This document shows positions 1-18,490 of a DNA stretch of 64,000 bases, piece by piece (position 1 is the first letter of the stretch; each line of letters starts with the position of its first letter). Source of the DNA: Vicinamibacteraceae bacterium (lineage in GTDB: Bacteria; Planctomycetota; Phycisphaerae; Phycisphaerales; UBA5793); assembly GCA_011525805.1 (NCBI GenBank), contig WYBR01000096.1:8969-72968 (forward strand). The letters run 5' to 3'. The notes beneath the pieces were generated by a model. It ran no database searches. It was not told where the DNA came from and saw only the letters and a list, made by a program, of their open reading frames with translations. Both the position numbers and the translations under genes were made by a program.

Positions 1-2186
1 CCCCGGAGTTTGACGACGAACGCATCCATGGTGCCGCCGTGGTATGCGTTGTTCCGGCCTTCGAAGGCGGTCGAGGCGGTGCCGCCCGTCGTGAGCGCGT
101 TGCCGGCGCTGTCCACTGCGATGCCCTCGCCGTAGTCGTTGTTGCGTCCACCGAGGTAGGTCATCCACTGGAGAGCGCCTGGTGGGCTGACCTTGACGAC
201 AAACGCGTCGTAGGAACCGTGTTCTGTGTTGTTCCGACCTTCGAAGTCGGTCGAGTGGGTTTCGCCCGTCACTAGCGCGTTGCCCGTGCTGTCCACGGCG
301 ATTCCGTTGCCCCAGTCGTAGGCGCTTCCCCCGAGGTACGTCATCCACTGGAGGGCGCCCGAGGCGCTAACCTTGACGACAAACCCGTCGGCGTAGTTGT
401 GGTAGGCGTTGTTCCGACCTTCGAAGACGCTCGACCAGGTTTCGCCCGTCACCAGCGATTTGCCAGCGCTGTCCACGGCGATGCCGTTACCCTCCTCCCG
501 GTCGCTTCCACCGAGGTAGGTCATCCACTGGAGGTCGCCTGAGCCGCTGACCTTGACGACAAACGCGTCGCTGGCGCCGCCGTGGGATGCGTTGTTCCGA
601 CCTTCGAAGTCGAACGAGCCGGTGCCTCCGGTCACCAGCGCGTTCCCGGTGCCGTCCACGGCGATGCCGCGCCCATAGTCGTAGTCGGTTCCACCGAGGT
701 AGGTCATCCACTGGAGAGCGCCTGAGCCGCTGACCTTGACGGCGAACGCGTCGTAGTAGCCGCGGTATGCGTTGTTCCGACCCTCGAAGTCGGTCGAAGT
801 GGTGGAGCCCGTCACCAGCAAGTTGCCGGCCTTGTCCACGGCGATGCCGCCGCCAAAGTCGTCGCGGCTTCCACCAAGGTAGGTCATCCACTGAAGGGCG
901 CCTGAGGCGCTGACCTTGACGACAAATGCGTCGTAGGGACCGCCGTGGGATGCGTTGTTCCGCCCTTCGAAGTCGGGCGAATAGGTATTGCCCGCCACCA
1001 GCGCGTTGCCGGCACCGTCCACGGCAATGTCGTAGCCTTCGTCGTCGAGCCTTCCACCGAGGTAGGTCATCCACTGGAGAGCGCCTGAGCCGCTGACCTT
1101 GACGACAAATGCGTCGTATTCGCCGCCGCGATATGCGTTGTTCCGACCTTCGAAGTCGGTCGAATAGGTGAAGCCAGTCACCAGCGCGTTGCCGGCGCTG
1201 TCCACGGCGATGCCGTTGCCCCGGTCGCCGCCGCTTCCTCCGAGGTAGGTCATCCACTCCAAGTCGGGATCGATGATGAGTTCGCGCGTCGGATCGACGG
1301 GGCCATCGAGCGCGAAGCGGTAGGTGCGATCGTCGCAGAGTTCGAAGCGGGCGGGGACGGCGTCGCGCGACTGGCCTTTCACAAAGCCCCCGGTCAATGA
1401 CCGGGGGTGATACACCACCGGCGCACCGTCGGCAAGTGTGCCAAATGACGTGTTGATCTGAACATTGCCGGCCTCGTCGATGCACAGGGAATCAATGCCG
1501 TGGTAGGCGATGCGGATTTGCGCGTAGTCCGCCCCCGGCGCGACGTGGAACTCGTACTTCAGCACGCCGTCGTCATTGCCCCTCACGTGCAGGTCCACGC
1601 CGTCGTAGAGATCCTCGTAGATGACCGCGCCGTAGGAGAGAACGCCGCTGGCCGTGGTGCGCCCTTCGCCGCCGACGAAGTAGTTGAACTTCGCCGCCTG
1701 CGGCTGCGCGCCAATGGGCAGCACACCGTTGCTGCCGGGGAAGGTGATGGTGAGTGTGAGGCCGTCGTACGCGGCGGACTCGCCTGACGAGCCGCGCGTG
1801 TCAGCAAGCGGCACATCGCGCTCGACGTTCAACGCCGCTTCCTCACGGGCGCGGCTCGTTGAGGCAGCGGCGCGGCTCGTAGAGGCATCGGCGCGGCTCG
1901 TAGAGGCATCGGCGCGGCTGATTGAATCGACATGCCGCGTCAGGTGCATCGTCAGTGCCGACTCCCGGAAGGCGACATCGAGACCGCGCGAGCGCAGGGC
2001 GTAGTGGACTTCGCGATCCGCCCACTGTCCCTGGTTGGGCACAATGTAGACGCCGCACAGGCCGAGTTTGAGCATCTCGCTTGCGGCGGGATCGCTCTCC
2101 GCCGGGCCGCCTGTGGCCGGCGGCGCAATGAGCACGCAGCAGGCAAGAACCACACCCATCGCCGACCACGTGGTGAAACGACGCAT
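1..2186 (-). CDS. Secreted SBBP (seven-bladed beta-propeller) repeat protein; 3' end runs off the window
   Basis: Not in the ORF track; translated by hand from ATG at 2186 (SD GAGGAGG at 2194-2200). Signal peptide MRRFTTWSAMGVVLACCVLIA, then NQGQW...YEDLYDGVDL...KYEFHVAPGAD...LIIDP, then 7 repeats of ~60 aa (WMTYLGG..D.G.GIAVDSAGNALVTG.T.S.DFEGRNNA..G..DAFVVKV). Confidence 0.9.
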   Translation of the reverse strand, partial: MRRFTTWSAMGVVLACCVLIAPPATGGPAESDPAASEMLKLGLCGVYIVPNQGQWADREVHYALRSRGLDVAFRESALTMHLTRHVDSISRADASTSRADASTSRAAASTSRAREEAALNVERDVPLADTRGSSGESAAYDGLTLTITFPGSNGVLPIGAQPQAAKFNYFVGGEGRTTASGVLSYGAVIYEDLYDGVDLHVRGNDDGVLKYEFHVAPGADYAQIRIAYHGIDSLCIDEAGNVQINTSFGTLADGAPVVYHPRSLTGGFVKGQSRDAVPARFELCDDRTYRFALDGPVDPTRELIIDPDLEWMTYLGGSGGDRGNGIAVDSAGNALVTGFTYSTDFEGRNNAYRGGEYDAFVVKVSGSGALQWMTYLGGRLDDEGYDIAVDGAGNALVAGNTYSPDFEGRNNASHGGPYDAFVVKVSASGALQWMTYLGGSRDDFGGGIAVDKAGNLLVTGSTTSTDFEGRNNAYRGYYDAFAVKVSGSGALQWMTYLGGTDYDYGRGIAVDGTGNALVTGGTGSFDFEGRNNASHGGASDAFVVKVSGSGDLQWMTYLGGSDREEGNGIAVDSAGKSLVTGETWSSVFEGRNNAYHNYADGFVVKVSASGALQWMTYLGGSAYDWGNGIAVDSTGNALVTGETHSTDFEGRNNTEHGSYDAFVVKVSPPGALQWMTYLGGRNNDYGEGIAVDSAGNALTTGGTASTAFEGRNNAYHGGTMDAFVVKLR
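1387..1407. repeat. REP-like palindrome CCCCCGGTCA-A-TGACCGGGGG inside the SBBP gene
   Basis: Perfect 10-bp stem preceded by AAG; same architecture as the copies at 16249 and 43238. Confidence 0.7.
1787..1859. repeat. Inverted REP-like doublet inside the SBBP gene
   Basis: ACGAGCCGCGCGTGTCAGCAAGCGGC (1787-1812) and GCCGCTTCCTCACGGGCGCGGCTCGT (1834-1859) are 22/26 complementary. Confidence 0.7.
1848..1919. repeat. 21-bp tandem repeat x3.4 (encodes SRADAST repeats)
   Basis: GGCGCGGCTCGT(T/A)GAGGCA(G/T)C units at 1848, 1869 and 1890, partial unit at 1911. Confidence 0.9.
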
Positions 2187-8165: not shown

Positions 8166-8193
8166 TTGACCCGCCCCGGCGGATTCGTATACT
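8166..8193 (+). promoter_or_regulatory. Sigma70-type promoter of the S10-spc operon
   Basis: TTGACC (8166-8171), 16-bp spacer, TATACT (8188-8193), ~155 nt upstream of rpsJ. Confidence 0.7.
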
Positions 8194-8847: not shown

Positions 8848-9537
8848 ATGAGCAAGGCACTCCTTGGCCGCAAGATCGGCATGTCGCGCTACTTCACCGA
8901 GGAAGGGAAGAACGTCCCCGTCACGGTGATCCAGGCGGGTCCGTGTTTCGTGACCCAGATCAAATCAAAGAACGACCACGGCTACAGCGCGATCCAGATC
9001 GGCTTCGAGGACGTTGAGCCGGGGCGGACCACGATGCCGCTGATCGGCCACGACGCCAAGGCCGGCGTCAGCCCCAAGAAGTTCCATCGGGAGGTCCGCC
9101 TCGATGAGGACGCCAAGGACGCCCAACTCGGCCAGCAACTCACCGTCGAAGTCTTTGAGGGCACGAAGTTTGTGGATGTGGTTGGGGTGAGCAAAGGCAA
9201 GGGCTTCCAGGGCACCATGAAGCGCCACAACTTCAAAGGCCTGTGCGCTTCGCACGGCACGGAGCGCAAGCACCGCTCGCCCGGGTCGATCGCCGGGCAC
9301 GCAACCAACCGCGGCACCGGCCCCAAGCCCAAGAAGGGCAAGAAAATGGCCGGCCACATGGGAGCCGAGCGCGTGACCGCGCGCAACCTCGACGTGGTGG
9401 AAATCCAACCGGAAAGAAACATTTTGCTGGTCAAGGGGGCTGTCCCCGGGCCGAATGGCGGCCTACTCTTCGTCCGCACTTCGGTGCGTCTGGGCCGCTC
9501 CAAGCAACTCGCGGTGAGCGGCAAGAAGAAGAACTAA
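8848..9537 (+). CDS. rplC: 50S ribosomal protein uL3
   Basis: LLGRKIGMS, SKGKGFQG, HRSPGSI, KKMAGHMG. Confidence 0.98.
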   Translation: MSKALLGRKIGMSRYFTEEGKNVPVTVIQAGPCFVTQIKSKNDHGYSAIQIGFEDVEPGRTTMPLIGHDAKAGVSPKKFHREVRLDEDAKDAQLGQQLTVEVFEGTKFVDVVGVSKGKGFQGTMKRHNFKGLCASHGTERKHRSPGSIAGHATNRGTGPKPKKGKKMAGHMGAERVTARNLDVVEIQPERNILLVKGAVPGPNGGLLFVRTSVRLGRSKQLAVSGKKKN

Positions 9538-10801: not shown

Positions 10802-11656
10802 ATGCCGATTCGAGTCTACAAAAGAACCAGCGCCGGGCGGAGGAACTCCTCGGTCAACCTCCACGCCGAGGTGACCAAGCAGACGCCTGAGAAGTCGCTG
10901 CTGCGCCGCTATTCGAAGACGGCCGGGCGCAACAACCAGGGCAAGATCACCGCGTGGGGTCGCGGCGGCGGGCACAAGCGGCGCTACCGCGCCATCGACT
11001 GGAAGCGACATCTCGACGATGTCCCCGCGAAGGTCGTCGGCGTCGAGTACGACCCGAACCGCTCGGCCCACCTCGCGCTGCTCGAGTACGCCGGCGGGGA
11101 GCGGCGCTACATCATCGCGCCCAAGGGGATCAAGGACGGCGAAGTGCTCCTGAGCAGCCGCCAGCGCATCGAGCCCAAGGTCGGCAACTGCATGCCGCTC
11201 AAGTACATCCCCACCGGCCTGAACGTGCACTGCCTCGAGATGGTGCCGGGCAAGGGCGGGCAACTCTGCCGCGCCGCGGGTATGTCGGCCCGCCTGACGA
11301 ACCGTGAGGAGAAGTGGGCGACGCTGGTGATGCCCTCGGGCGAGATCCGGCAGGTTTCCATCGAGTGCCGCGCGACCATCGGCGAGGTCGGCAACACCGA
11401 TCACCAGCAGGTGCGCCTGGGCAAGGCCGGCCGCAGCCGGCACCGCGGCCGCAAACCCAAGACGCGCGGCGTGGTGCGCAATCACTACGACCATCCGCTG
11501 GGCGGCGGCGAAGGCAAGTCCAAGGGCGGCCGCGCCCCCGCCAGCAAGACCGGCGTCTTTGCCAAGGGCGGACGGACGCGCAAGCGCAAACTCGCCTCCG
11601 CCAAGCGGATCATCCGGCGCCGCCGCAGCAAGCGCTACGGGCAACTGACGCTCTGA
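10802..11656 (+). CDS. rplB: 50S ribosomal protein uL2
   Basis: GRNNQGKIT, EYDPNRSA, DHPLGGGEG. Confidence 0.98.
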   Translation: MPIRVYKRTSAGRRNSSVNLHAEVTKQTPEKSLLRRYSKTAGRNNQGKITAWGRGGGHKRRYRAIDWKRHLDDVPAKVVGVEYDPNRSAHLALLEYAGGERRYIIAPKGIKDGEVLLSSRQRIEPKVGNCMPLKYIPTGLNVHCLEMVPGKGGQLCRAAGMSARLTNREEKWATLVMPSGEIRQVSIECRATIGEVGNTDHQQVRLGKAGRSRHRGRKPKTRGVVRNHYDHPLGGGEGKSKGGRAPASKTGVFAKGGRTRKRKLASAKRIIRRRRSKRYGQLTL

Positions 11657-11713
11657 GGAATCGAATCGACGCGGCGGGCGGATTCGTCCCGCCGGTCAAG
11701 AGGAACGTGAATC

Positions 11714-12004
11714 ATGGCTCGATCACTGAAAAAAGGCCCCTTCGTCGAAGAGCATCTCTTCAACAAGGTGATGAGGATGTCCCAGGGAGGACGGCGCGAG
11801 CCGATCAAGACCTGGTCGCGCCGCTGCACCATCGTTCCCGAGTTCGTCGGGCACACCTTCAAGGTGCACAACGGCCGGTCGTTCCTGGACGTCTTCGTGA
11901 CGGAAGACATGGTGGGGCACAAACTCGGCGAGTTCAGCCCCACCCGGCAGTTCCGGGGCCACACGAACAAGAAGGAAGGCATCGTCTCCGGCGCCAAGGG
12001 CTGA
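11714..12004 (+). CDS. rpsS: 30S ribosomal protein uS19
   Basis: [30 protein letters not shown]. Confidence 0.98.
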
Positions 12005-12033
12005 GCAGGCGCCGAACGAGAGGTTGACGCATC

Positions 12034-12567
12034 ATGATTCTGAACGCACAACGATTCAACGCGGTGATGAAGGCCGCCGGGGCAAGCCCTGAGGACCTCG
12101 CGGCCGCCATCAGGCGGCCGGGGATCAACGCCGTCTCCGCGCTGCGCAACTGGTCGAAGGGCAACTACAAGCCGGCGCCGAAGCGCGAGGACATCCGCGC
12201 CCTCGCCGCCGCGCTTCGCGTCGGCGTGAGCGACATCGCCGACTTCGACGGCGCGCACAAGTGGGCGCGGATTTCGCCCCGAAAGGTGCGGCTGGTGTCT
12301 GACCTCATCCGCGGCCGCGACATCGACACCGCCCTCACCGTGCTCAAATTCAGCAAGAAGCGGGCGGCGGTGTTCGTTCGCAAGGCCCTCGAGTCGGCCA
12401 TCGCCTCGGCGGAAGACAATGAGGCTGATCTCAGCCGCCTCGTCGTCAGCGAGTCGCGCGTCGACGAGGGGCCGACGATGAAGCGCTTCCAGCCCAAGGA
12501 CCGGGGCCGGGCGCACCCCATCATGAAGCGGTCCAGCCACGTGCGCGTCGCGGTGGCGGTCGCTTAG
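12034..12567 (+). CDS. rplV: 50S ribosomal protein uL22 with N-terminal XRE-like HTH domain
   Basis: C-terminal [11 protein letters not shown]...[27 protein letters not shown] is uL22; ~68 extra N-terminal residues have an HTH pattern; SD GAGG upstream. Confidence 0.95.
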
Positions 12568-12655
12568 GCAGGAGCAGGCCGGCGCGGCGCCGAAGCGCCC
12601 GCCCGCGAGAGACGAGACTCGGGGCCGCGGCCCCAGGAAACGGACTGGTCGAACC

Positions 12656-13354
12656 ATGGGACAGAAGTGTCATCCGCTCGGATTCAGGGTCGGCATCACC
12701 GAGCCGCATCGCAGCCGCTGGTACGCGCCCAAGGCGCTCTACGGCGAGTTGCTCGTGGAGGACTTCCGCATCCGCGAGTACGTGGACAAGCGCCTCAACC
12801 GCACGCCGCCCTTCGCCGCCGTCTCCGAGATTCACATCGAGCGGACGCGGCAGGAACTCTCGATCGTCCTCAAGACGGCGCGGCCGGGTCTGGTCATCGG
12901 CCCGCGCGGCGCCGAGGTCGAGAAACTCCAGCAGGATCTCCAGACCATGACCGGCCGCCAGGTCTCGATCAAGATCGTCGAGATCAAGAGCCCGGACACG
13001 AACGCGAAACTCATCGCCGAGGGAATCGCGGAGCAGTTGAAGAAGCGGGCGAGTTTCCGCCGCATCCTCAAGATGCGCGCCGAGGGCGCGATGCAGGCGG
13101 GAGCCAAGGGGGTCAAGATCAGCGTCTCGGGCCGTCTCGGCGGCGCCGAGATGAGCCGCAGCCTCACCGTCGCCCTCGGGTCCATCCCGCTCCAGACGCT
13201 GCAGGCGAACGTGGATTACGGCTTTGCGCCGAGTTTCACCAAGTCCGGGACGATCGGCGTGAAGGTGTGGGTGTACAAGGGTCTCTACGAAGCGAGCGAG
13301 GAGGCCGAGTCCACCGCGGCCGGCGGCCGGGCCCGTGCGCGAGGACGGCGTTGA
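12656..13354 (+). CDS. rpsC: 30S ribosomal protein uS3
   Basis: MGQKCHPLGFRVG, ARPGLVIG, SGRLGGAEMSR. Confidence 0.98.
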   Translation: MGQKCHPLGFRVGITEPHRSRWYAPKALYGELLVEDFRIREYVDKRLNRTPPFAAVSEIHIERTRQELSIVLKTARPGLVIGPRGAEVEKLQQDLQTMTGRQVSIKIVEIKSPDTNAKLIAEGIAEQLKKRASFRRILKMRAEGAMQAGAKGVKISVSGRLGGAEMSRSLTVALGSIPLQTLQANVDYGFAPSFTKSGTIGVKVWVYKGLYEASEEAESTAAGGRARARGRR

Positions 13355-14859: not shown

Positions 14860-15363
14860 ATGCCCGCCCACGTCCGCAGCGGCGACACGGTGATGGTGAC
14901 GGCCGGCTCCGATCGGGGCCGGACCGGCACCGTCCTCAAGGTCATCCCCGCAAAGAGCCAGGTCATCGTGCAGGGGCTCAACACCCGCACCAAGCACCTC
15001 AAGCCCTCGCAGACCAATCCGCAGGGCGGGGTCATCACGCGCGAGATGCCCATTCACCTCTCCAACGTCAGCCCCGTCGTGGACGGCAAGCCGACGCGCG
15101 TTCGATTCGCCGTCAAGAGCGACGGGTCGAAGGTGCGCGTCGCGGCCCGTGGCGGGCAGGAACTCGGCGTCGTTCACGGGCCGCGCGAGTCGCGCGGCCC
15201 GGCGGGCGCATCACCCGGCCCTTCGCGGCGGGTCGCCTCGAAGAAGAAGCCCGCGCGGCGCAAGGGCGGCGCCAAGGCCGGCGGCAAGGCCGCTGCGGGC
15301 AAGTCCGCCAGCCGCAAAGCCGCCAGCAGCACCAAGAAGACCGGCACCGGAAGGAAAACCTGA
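14860..15363 (+). CDS. rplX: 50S ribosomal protein uL24 with Lys/Ala-rich C-terminal tail
   Basis: HVRSGDTVMVTAGSDRG, PIHLSNV; ~60-aa basic low-complexity tail. Confidence 0.95.
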   Translation: MPAHVRSGDTVMVTAGSDRGRTGTVLKVIPAKSQVIVQGLNTRTKHLKPSQTNPQGGVITREMPIHLSNVSPVVDGKPTRVRFAVKSDGSKVRVAARGGQELGVVHGPRESRGPAGASPGPSRRVASKKKPARRKGGAKAGGKAAAGKSASRKAASSTKKTGTGRKT

Positions 15364-17815: not shown

Positions 17816-18490
17816 ATGATCGACGAATCAAGCGAATCACAGGGATTTGAATCGAGCACGGTCGGCGTGTTCCGCACGGCCGCCACCGTCAAGGGCGGTC
17901 GGCGCTTCAGTTTCGGCGCGCTCGTCGTCGTCGGCGACCGGCGCGGCCGGGTCGGCTTCGGCTACGCCAAGGGCAAGGAAGTTCCCCCCGCGATCGAGAA
18001 GGCGGAGAAGACCGCCCGGCGCGACCTCCTCAAGGTCGAACTCATCAAGGGCACCATCCCGCACTCAGTGCTCGGCCGCTTCGGCGCCAGCGAGGTGCGG
18101 CTCCTCCCTGCCAGCCCCGGCACCGGCGTCGTCGCGGGCGGCACCGTCCGCGCTGTCCTCGAACTCGCCGGCGTGCGCGACTGCCTGACCAAGTGCTACG
18201 GCTCCACGAACAAGAAAAACCTCGTCAAGGCCACGATGAACGGCCTGCAGCAACTCCGCTCTAAGCGCCTCGTCGAGGAGTTGCGCGGCGTGTCGATCGA
18301 AACCACCCACGTCGAGGAGTTCACCGCCAACGCCCCCGAGGTCGAATACGTTCGCAAGGCCCCGCCCAAACGCGAAGAGCAGTCCGGCGGAGGCCGTCGC
18401 GGCTCAGGCCGCGGACGCGGCCGATCTCGTCGCGAAGGCGGCGAGGAGGGCCAGGCCGGGCAGACCGGCCAGAGCCCCGCTCCGGAGTAA
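17816..18490 (+). CDS. rpsE: 30S ribosomal protein uS5 with C-terminal extension
   Basis: TVKGGRRFSFGALVVVGD, PASPGTGVVAGG. Confidence 0.97.
   Translation: MIDESSESQGFESSTVGVFRTAATVKGGRRFSFGALVVVGDRRGRVGFGYAKGKEVPPAIEKAEKTARRDLLKVELIKGTIPHSVLGRFGASEVRLLPASPGTGVVAGGTVRAVLELAGVRDCLTKCYGSTNKKNLVKATMNGLQQLRSKRLVEELRGVSIETTHVEEFTANAPEVEYVRKAPPKREEQSGGGRRGSGRGRGRSRREGGEEGQAGQTGQSPAPE

Follow-up and report, generated by a model that had tools for sequence, protein, structure and literature searches.

Background

Core bacterial ribosomal proteins are often regarded as nearly invariant, and in Escherichia coli uL22 (RplV) lines the polypeptide exit tunnel. Folded lineage-specific domains on such proteins are, to our knowledge, rare and can mark specialised ribosome biology. 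Here we describe the rplV gene in a stretch of 64,000 nucleotides (the window in the following; positions 8,969 to 72,968, forward strand, of contig WYBR01000096.1, GenBank assembly GCA_011525805.1) from a genome which GTDB places in the Phycisphaerales of the phylum Planctomycetota. Its product carries, ahead of a normal uL22 core, a domain with the predicted fold of the Cro/C1 (XRE) helix-turn-helix (HTH) family, a type of domain which we know almost only from transcription factors and antitoxins.

The closest described system is bacterial uL22 itself. Residues 71–177 of the window protein agree with it in the family cut-offs passed, the operon position, the predicted fold with the tunnel hairpin and the single copy; the difference is the extra folded N-terminal domain of 70 residues. 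The known Cro/C1 domains (C.Csp231I, C.AhdI, SinR, P22 c2, 434 repressor) share with this extra domain the lambda-repressor-like fold (Z 7.5–9.0 over 60–71 residues) and a helix 3–helix 4 pattern of N/E, x, x, x, G, then P. However, the window domain is fused to a ribosomal protein without a separate dimerisation or sensor domain, its turn is longer and variable, it has Ala at positions 33 and 36, and it stays below the Pfam thresholds.

An XRE-type HTH on a ribosome is known from MBF1/EDF1, which is found on the 40S subunit of collided ribosomes and contacts rRNA there. Mbf1 is reported to contact h33, h16 and h18 of the 18S rRNA, its HTH bridging rRNA helices on the 40S subunit (bioRxiv 10.1101/2020.10.31.363135). 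The EDF1 HTH (1x57) matches the predicted fold of the window domain with Z 6.5, which is below many bacterial XRE proteins and indicates no special similarity. Furthermore, MBF1 is a free archaeal and eukaryotic factor which binds the small subunit transiently, with an MBF1-specific N-terminal region followed by a C-terminal HTH_3, whereas the window HTH is N-terminal to uL22 and a covalent part of a bacterial large-subunit protein. Because architecture and subunit differ, we rejected an identification of the domain as MBF1.

A precedent for added sequence at the ribosome-surface termini of uL22 is the chloroplast protein uL22c, with N- and C-terminal extensions. In spinach these total 89 residues, which are described as largely extended and not well resolved rather than as a folded HTH (PMC5071890). 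The NCBIfam model NF008917 (PRK12279, 'L22/unknown domain fusion') was tried and rejected as well: the window protein reaches 67.9 bits against a cut-off of 526, and only the L22 part, positions 10–107, is matched. In PRK12279 the L22 part stands at the start of a 311-position model. No description of an HTH-uL22 fusion was found in full-text literature, a search from which subscription journals are largely absent, and L22 is not mentioned in the first 300,000 characters of PMC7203096. Thus, the fusion is apparently undescribed so far, while the kind itself, lineage-specific extensions of ribosomal proteins, is known.

The fused rplV gene

The gene is a single open reading frame of 177 codons plus stop at 12034..12567 on the plus strand, starting with ATG, according to the list of reading frames and the translation. 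A preliminary description, made from the sequence alone, had named this frame as uL22 fused to an XRE/Cro-type HTH domain, and the peptides quoted there are found in the translation. Ribosomal_L22 (PF00237) spans residues 76–174 (E 6.7e-36, 123.1 bits versus a cut-off of 28), and the product also passes TIGR01044 rplV_bact (116.7 bits, cut-off 73.65). It is the sole uL22 match in the source genome. With the Pfam core starting at residue 76, about 70–75 extra residues precede it, close to the ~68 given previously. In the alignment of fused and ordinary uL22 described below the core comprises residues 71–177 (12244..12564).

The canonical position claimed for the gene was found as well: it lies between rpsS and rpsC in an S10-type operon with the order rpsJ, rplC, rplD, rplW, rplB, rpsS, rplV, rpsC, rplP, rpmC, continuing with the genes for uS17, uL14, uL24, uL5, uS14, uS8, uL6, uL18, uS5, uL15 and SecY. 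The AlphaFold2 (AF2) model of the full-length protein has a mean predicted local distance difference test score (pLDDT) of 87.8 and a predicted template-modelling score (pTM) of 0.77. It contains the alpha/beta globular uL22 fold with a long beta-hairpin and matches solved bacterial uL22 chains in Foldseek (E down to 2.8e-9, target-normalised score TMt 0.73–0.88). Among the best 50 chains, the solved uL22 chains align over at most 112 columns of the model, that is, with the core only.

Fold of the N-terminal domain

The N-terminal domain comprises residues 1–70 (12034..12243). Residues 1–71 of the window protein match three HTH families of Pfam below their thresholds: HTH_31 with 17.5 bits (threshold 27, E 0.005), HTH_26 with 13.5 (22) and HTH_3 with 12.7 (23). 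Therefore, we speak of an XRE-fold domain and not of an XRE-family regulator. These sub-threshold matches cover nearly the whole profiles. When the N-domains of 17 fused proteins from relatives were scanned singly at E≤1, 11 matched HTH_31, nine HTH_3 and nine HTH_26; the lowest E was 1.7e-5. One homologue (P0010), which also carries Ribosomal_L22, exceeds the HTH_31 threshold (31.9 bits versus 27). Together with the fold matches given below, the XRE resemblance first seen in the letters alone goes beyond chance.

In the reverse direction, a profile of the N-domain was searched against 1.84 billion representative proteins, which gave 118 matches at E≤0.001. Pfam was run on the best 57 of these 118. 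Among them, 18 have Ribosomal_L22 and 11 have several tandem HTH_3/HTH_31 repeats, the remaining ones being short or without family. Inspection of 18 short matches identified 13 as fragments of the same fusion, ending early or frame-shifted, and the other five as chimeric reads (P0009, P0014, P0018, P0027, P0042). No clear stand-alone copy of the domain was seen among these profile matches or in the surveyed genomes of the window's order.

Predicted alone, the N-domain reaches a pLDDT of 91.2 (alignment A2) and forms helices at residues 5–15, 19–25, 33–41 and 51–60, plus a short one at 65–67. The helix-turn-helix proper (12088..12156) consists of helix 2 (19–25), a 'turn' of seven residues (26–32) and helix 3 (33–41), as judged from predicted secondary structure and conservation. 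In a Foldseek search of the PDB the matches displayed are mostly of the XRE family, with a query-normalised score (TMq) of 0.54–0.70, among them C.Csp231I, DdrO, BswR, CapH, C.BclI, P22 c2, SinR and 434 Cro. Every E-value is above 0.1, as expected for so short a domain. With VIA-align, 15 of 48,161 chains reach Z≥8 (maximum 9.1), and 11 of the 15 are XRE-type HTH regulators, for instance C.Csp231I (Z 9.0), C.AhdI (8.6, root-mean-square deviation 1.6 Å over 60 residues), SinR, ComR and P22 c2 (8.4 each). The other four are phosphonate-pathway enzymes (HEPD, MPnS, HppE), matched over one domain of 60–70 residues. A Z near 8 is by itself no proof; the XRE matches span the whole domain and dominate the 50 best rows. 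A chain of the large subunit of the Toxoplasma gondii mitoribosome is matched as well (Z 7.0).

Sequence-based searches beyond Pfam gave leads only. With the N-domain profile, sequences from the PDB are matched weakly (rotavirus NSP3, E 0.0025; TniQ, 0.02–0.03; C.Csp231I, 0.26). In the ESM Atlas, where scores did not exceed 0.76, the top match is a uL22 cluster from Planctomycetota (182 aa), and small clusters of HTH_26/HTH_3 come next. A predicted homodimer of two N-domains scored 0.00 (mark 0.42), which says nothing for or against binding.

Sequence profiles, the reverse profile search and the predicted fold are three independent lines, and they agree with each other. Therefore, the N-domain of the window uL22 is, by prediction, an HTH domain of the Cro/C1 (XRE) fold, and the model of residues 1–70 bears out the preliminary description on this point.

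The domain and the core form one protein

To study the junction, 30 fused uL22 sequences were aligned with 12 ordinary ones. The ordinary protein, found in sister families, begins M-A-Y/F, and its residue 3 corresponds to residue 71 (Phe, Trp or Tyr) of the fused form. Thus, the domain is joined without a linker onto the native N-terminus. The native Met of ordinary uL22 is replaced in the fused genes, and in the full-length model the pLDDT stays at 85–93 across the junction.

These features bear on the possibility that the domain is an annotation artefact or a decaying relic, with translation starting at the uL22 core and the upstream frame being a leader, a case which the preliminary description had raised against itself. 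Two public records speak for it: NCBI MCA9282546.1 and MCB9842633.1 (P0130, from the cluster of P0026) annotate an L22 of 122 aa from an internal Met in helix 4. Another member of this cluster has 138 aa, and cluster mates have 184 aa. Gene callers seem to clip the HTH domain in some public records. There is also a relative from the window's family with a two-contig genome (G009; locus L011, ~1900–1935, minus strand) in which an extra base splits the N-domain of rplV. It sits in the conserved S-A-I-R-N-W codons, with a TGA soon after, and is either an assembly error or a real frameshift.

The starts themselves argue for the long protein. M1 is aligned in 30 of the 30 fused sequences. Ten nt before the ATG at 12034 the window has a Shine-Dalgarno-like GAGAGG (12018..12023), which is kept at the same place in three of six other members of the genus, and AGAGG in all six; purine-rich stretches also precede the rplV start in other families. 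As first noted from the sequence, the junction lacks an ATG. Internal initiation near it would be possible only at an in-frame GTG (12226..12228), which is the codon of the conserved Val65 and has no purine-rich stretch before it. Eight of 31 fused genes are free of in-frame ATG, GTG and TTG over the last 30 codons ahead of the core; in one of the fused genes (L009) such codons are missing from the entire N-domain.

Selection points in the same direction. Across orders, identity of the N-domains is 23–50% over 70 residues, with M1, W40, P47 and A58 invariant. For 21 within-genus pairs, the ratio of nonsynonymous to synonymous substitution rates (dN/dS, Nei-Gojobori) is 0.03–0.39 in the N-domain and 0–0.14 in the core. 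The higher value in the N-domain would suit a relic, but it is well below 1. Judged from these comparisons, both parts are under purifying selection, which is weaker on the N-domain. Four RNA libraries, which come from four studies, have a single contig that covers 11600–12750 without indels; these are contigs only, with DNA carry-over possible, and they carry no information on the translation start.

Aligned starts, missing junction starts, selection and the confident fold prediction all speak against an artefact or relic, which we consider very unlikely. According to the sequences, the N-domain and the uL22 core are translated as one protein, as had been proposed.

Distribution and inheritance

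The N-domain profile was run against sampled genomes at three levels: the GTDB order of the window at E≤0.001, its class at E≤1e-5 and its phylum at E≤1e-6. GTDB families are referred to as f1 to f25. Within the order, the domain is present in 10 of 10 genomes of f1 and in 123 of 123 of f2 (including the unpublished genome G104), while f3 (0 of 123), f5 (0 of 19) and f6 (0 of 2) gave no match and f4 a single one among 123, a weak match (E 9.8e-4) in an unrelated frame of 497 aa. Further carriers in the class are f13 (4 of 4), f17 (27 of 28), f19 (5 of 5), f24 (20 of 20) and f25 (6 of 6). At the class threshold, zero matches were found in f3, f4, f5, f8–f12, f14–f16, f18 and f20–f23. One of 60 genomes of f7 has a match, on a contig of 3442 bases (L134, genome G665) in a bin which is 88% complete and 3% contaminated. 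Its sequence is f24-like, and this lone carrier is probably a binning contaminant. In the phylum survey 15 of 401 genomes match, all from carrier families; the other 386 have no match to the N-domain, and no other class of the phylum is represented among the matches.

Thus, the rplV survey in Phycisphaerae, suggested in the preliminary description, finds the domain throughout, or almost throughout, the genomes sampled from seven GTDB families, which belong to more than one order, and not in f3–f6. In the loci fetched from other orders it is fused to uL22 in 14 of 14. We also looked at 80 loci from named genome records titled Phycisphaerae, Phycisphaerales or Planctomycetota. The match starts at residue 16 or earlier in 62 of them and at residue 20 or 33 in two, and covers the core only in 16. 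Among the carriers are records with the labels Phycisphaera mikurensis and Tepidisphaera sp., and strains ZRK32 and ZRK34 have the uL22 core only.

A tree of the uL22 cores follows taxonomy. The ordinary uL22 of f3–f6 are placed among the fused ones of f1 and f2, and the fusion label needs three changes. Forcing the fused uL22 into one clade costs 10.2 log-likelihood units (approximately unbiased (AU) test, p 0.107), by which a single origin is neither shown nor rejected. In the tree of the N-domains the window's order is split from the other orders on one branch (support 93/95), with the families grouped in the same way as by their cores. Judged from both trees, the N-domain is inherited together with the uL22 core. 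The simplest reading of these data would be one old fusion, vertical inheritance and later losses. A start codon newly arisen at the junction would suffice for such a loss.

Conserved surface and the question of DNA binding

Besides the invariant residues, of which W40, P47 and A58 are present in 30 of 30 fused sequences, N39 is conserved in 29, A23 and A33 in 28, and G30 and A36 in 27. Basic residues occupy position 38 in 27, position 42 in 20, position 46 in 27 and position 50 in 22 sequences, and position 7 is also conserved as basic. In the window this patch consists of R38, N39, W40, K42, G43, K46, P47 and K50 (12145..12183). The net charge of the N-domain has a median of +5 (range -4 to +7) and is positive in 25 of the 30.

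A basic domain with the fold of the Cro/C1 repressors could be a moonlighting DNA binder, either an autoregulator acting off the ribosome and reporting free uL22, or a tether between ribosome and nucleoid. In favour of this one may also cite a sigma-70-like site upstream of rpsJ (8166–8193; TTGACC and TATACT, 16 nt apart), which is flanked by inverted repeats rich in GC. However, these repeats are short, and the genome as a whole is GC-rich; as nothing else was seen there we rejected an operator near the rpsJ promoter.

The recognition helix speaks against DNA binding as well. In XRE repressors polar base-reading side chains sit at the helix-3 positions equivalent to 33, 35 and 36. The fused proteins have conserved Ala at 33 and 36 and either Ser or Ala at 35, and no conserved polar base-reading side chain is left. 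Canonical HTH proteins have a tight turn between the helices. Here the 'turn' between helices 2 and 3 has seven residues and takes 3 to 10 more in other families. From the sequence, Ala33 and Ala36 together with the long variable turn suggest an atypical binding mode. For a regulator that senses free uL22, one of the two roles considered in the preliminary description, we find no support; the two alanines, the variable turn and the lack of a stand-alone copy in the surveyed order genomes and among the representative proteins speak against a classical operator-binding repressor. Judged by sequence features of this kind, such a repressor is less likely than a module of the ribosome surface, and DNA binding in either form seems to us doubtful, with a low probability.

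A bolder version would be that every 50S subunit has a working nucleic-acid-binding HTH at its exit face which couples ribosomes to the nucleoid or the transcription machinery via DNA or nascent mRNA, or that free HTH-uL22 represses the ribosomal-protein operon in a feedback loop. To this we give slightly less weight still and regard it as improbable.

A possible role on the ribosome

In the AF2 model, strand 1 of uL22 (69–77) pairs with the C-terminal strand (168–176), and the hairpin of the tunnel extends from the opposite end. With the end of strand 1 beside the C-terminus and opposite the hairpin, the domain should stick out from the globular part towards the solvent. We infer that the uL22 core must enter the 50S subunit, and a domain rigidly attached at strand 1 would then be a permanent feature of the solvent-exposed side of the large subunit, where it would border the polypeptide exit. 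Because the base-reading positions hold Ala or Ser and the turn is expanded, contacts to the backbone or base stacking are favoured over the reading of an operator. Trp40, Asn39, Pro47 and the basic patch 38/42/46/50 may grip a phosphate backbone or stack on a base. Most simply the backbone would be that of the 23S rRNA next to uL22, or it could belong to another RNA at the exit, and the domain would provide the ribosome with a structural or docking module specific to this lineage. A ribosome-bound HTH of the XRE type has precedent, since Mbf1 contacts 18S rRNA and a mitoribosomal chain of T. gondii matches the fold.

We therefore favour, with reasonable but limited confidence, the reading that the XRE-fold domain fused to uL22 is a ribosome-resident surface module near the tunnel exit which grips a nucleic-acid backbone. 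The surface module near the exit was the second role considered in the preliminary description. With its linker-less attachment, unbroken pLDDT at the junction, mostly positive charge and vertical inheritance, the predicted protein fits this role better than the first.

The same rigid attachment predicted for the domain would also serve a docking platform that does not bind nucleic acid and remodels the exit face around uL22 and bL32, recruiting or excluding a protein factor, such as peptide deformylase (PDF), methionine aminopeptidase (MetAP), a chaperone, a targeting or hibernation factor, or a lineage-specific partner. On the E. coli ribosome, PDF and MetAP are reported to be anchored at the tunnel exit primarily through uL22 and bL32 (bioRxiv 10.1101/312850). 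An invariant Trp next to small helix-3 residues would suit a protein–protein interface, and some N-domains are acidic. However, no partner was found, and a basic patch that is conserved, together with a positive net charge in 25 of 30 sequences, points rather to a nucleic-acid backbone. Thus, a platform of this kind is possible, although we think it on the whole unlikely.

Several observations weigh against a backbone-gripping module on the ribosome, beginning with the Pfam scores below threshold reported above. Five of the 30 N-domains are net acidic (-1 to -4), a poor fit to a general backbone-binding role. The argument from base-reading positions draws on the general picture of XRE–DNA complexes, and the location of the domain on the ribosome is inferred from the predicted model. 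The sister families f3–f6 manage without the domain, which therefore is not needed for basic ribosome function. From the absence in these families and the five acidic versions, we conclude that the role of the domain is probably modulatory rather than essential.

The search for co-varying partners belongs to the same side of the balance. No indel block of at least 4 nt in the 23S rRNA follows the trait in an alignment of six carriers, three non-carriers and E. coli, a small sample with a crude block criterion. The C-terminal tails of PDF past the Pfam match, which hold the ribosome-binding helix, are alike in 12 carriers and 18 non-carriers. In 10 genomes of each group, uL23 has 91–92 aa in carriers versus 91–93 in non-carriers and uL29 has 61–68 versus 65–71 aa, which we did not count as a difference. 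All 41 genomes compared, with or without the domain, have both bL32 and bL17. Only uL24 showed a difference, with 119–179 aa in 10 carriers versus 111–118 aa in 10 non-carriers. As the long tail occurs in only five of the 10 carriers, uL24 was rejected as a strict partner of the uL22 domain.

Further observations on ribosomal components

The uL24 of the window (14860–15363, plus strand) has ~167 aa with a Lys/Ala/Gly-rich C-terminal tail of ~60 residues; it is another protein of the tunnel exit. The comparison of 23S rRNAs (loci L117–L125 versus L126 of E. coli) yielded some features of its own. One Phycisphaerae sequence (L118, genome G439) has an insertion of 285 nt at alignment columns 2105–2389, ~1870 in E. 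coli numbering, which is absent in the other eight and could be an intervening sequence or intron. A second 23S match in this genome is of nearly the same length (3167 versus 3170 bases). Seven of eight Phycisphaerae 23S rRNAs are without the segment corresponding to E. coli ~1485–1510, of which G013 keeps ~1495–1510, and all eight are without ~1543–1559, regardless of the uL22 domain. A genome from another class of the phylum retains both segments.

The immediate neighbours of rplV, both on the plus strand, are rpsS (uS19) upstream at 11714..12004, with its stop at 12002–12004 and a length conserved among relatives, and rpsC (uS3) downstream at 12656..13354, recognised by the Pfam families KH_2 and Ribosomal_S3_C. 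Farther downstream, uS5 (17816–18490, plus strand) has 224 aa. Its Pfam S5 domains stop at residue 156, leaving a C-terminal tail of ~68 residues without family match. In the source genome (G000) the bL17 gene rplQ is on contig C98, apart from the S10-spc contig C80. It is likewise off the S10-spc contig in other genomes of the window's family (G007, G009, G010), even in assemblies of two and 10 contigs, and in several sister families the bL17 gene is ~10–12 kb from rplV on the same contig.

Conclusions

The HTH-uL22 trait defines large parts of the Phycisphaerae. It is also an annotation problem, as some public records begin the protein inside the extra domain and thereby partly hide it. If the domain is ribosome-bound and binds RNA, it would be a bacterial counterpart of the gain of surface modules by eukaryotic ribosomes. 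If it should instead bind DNA, it would be a new link between the ribosome and the chromosome.

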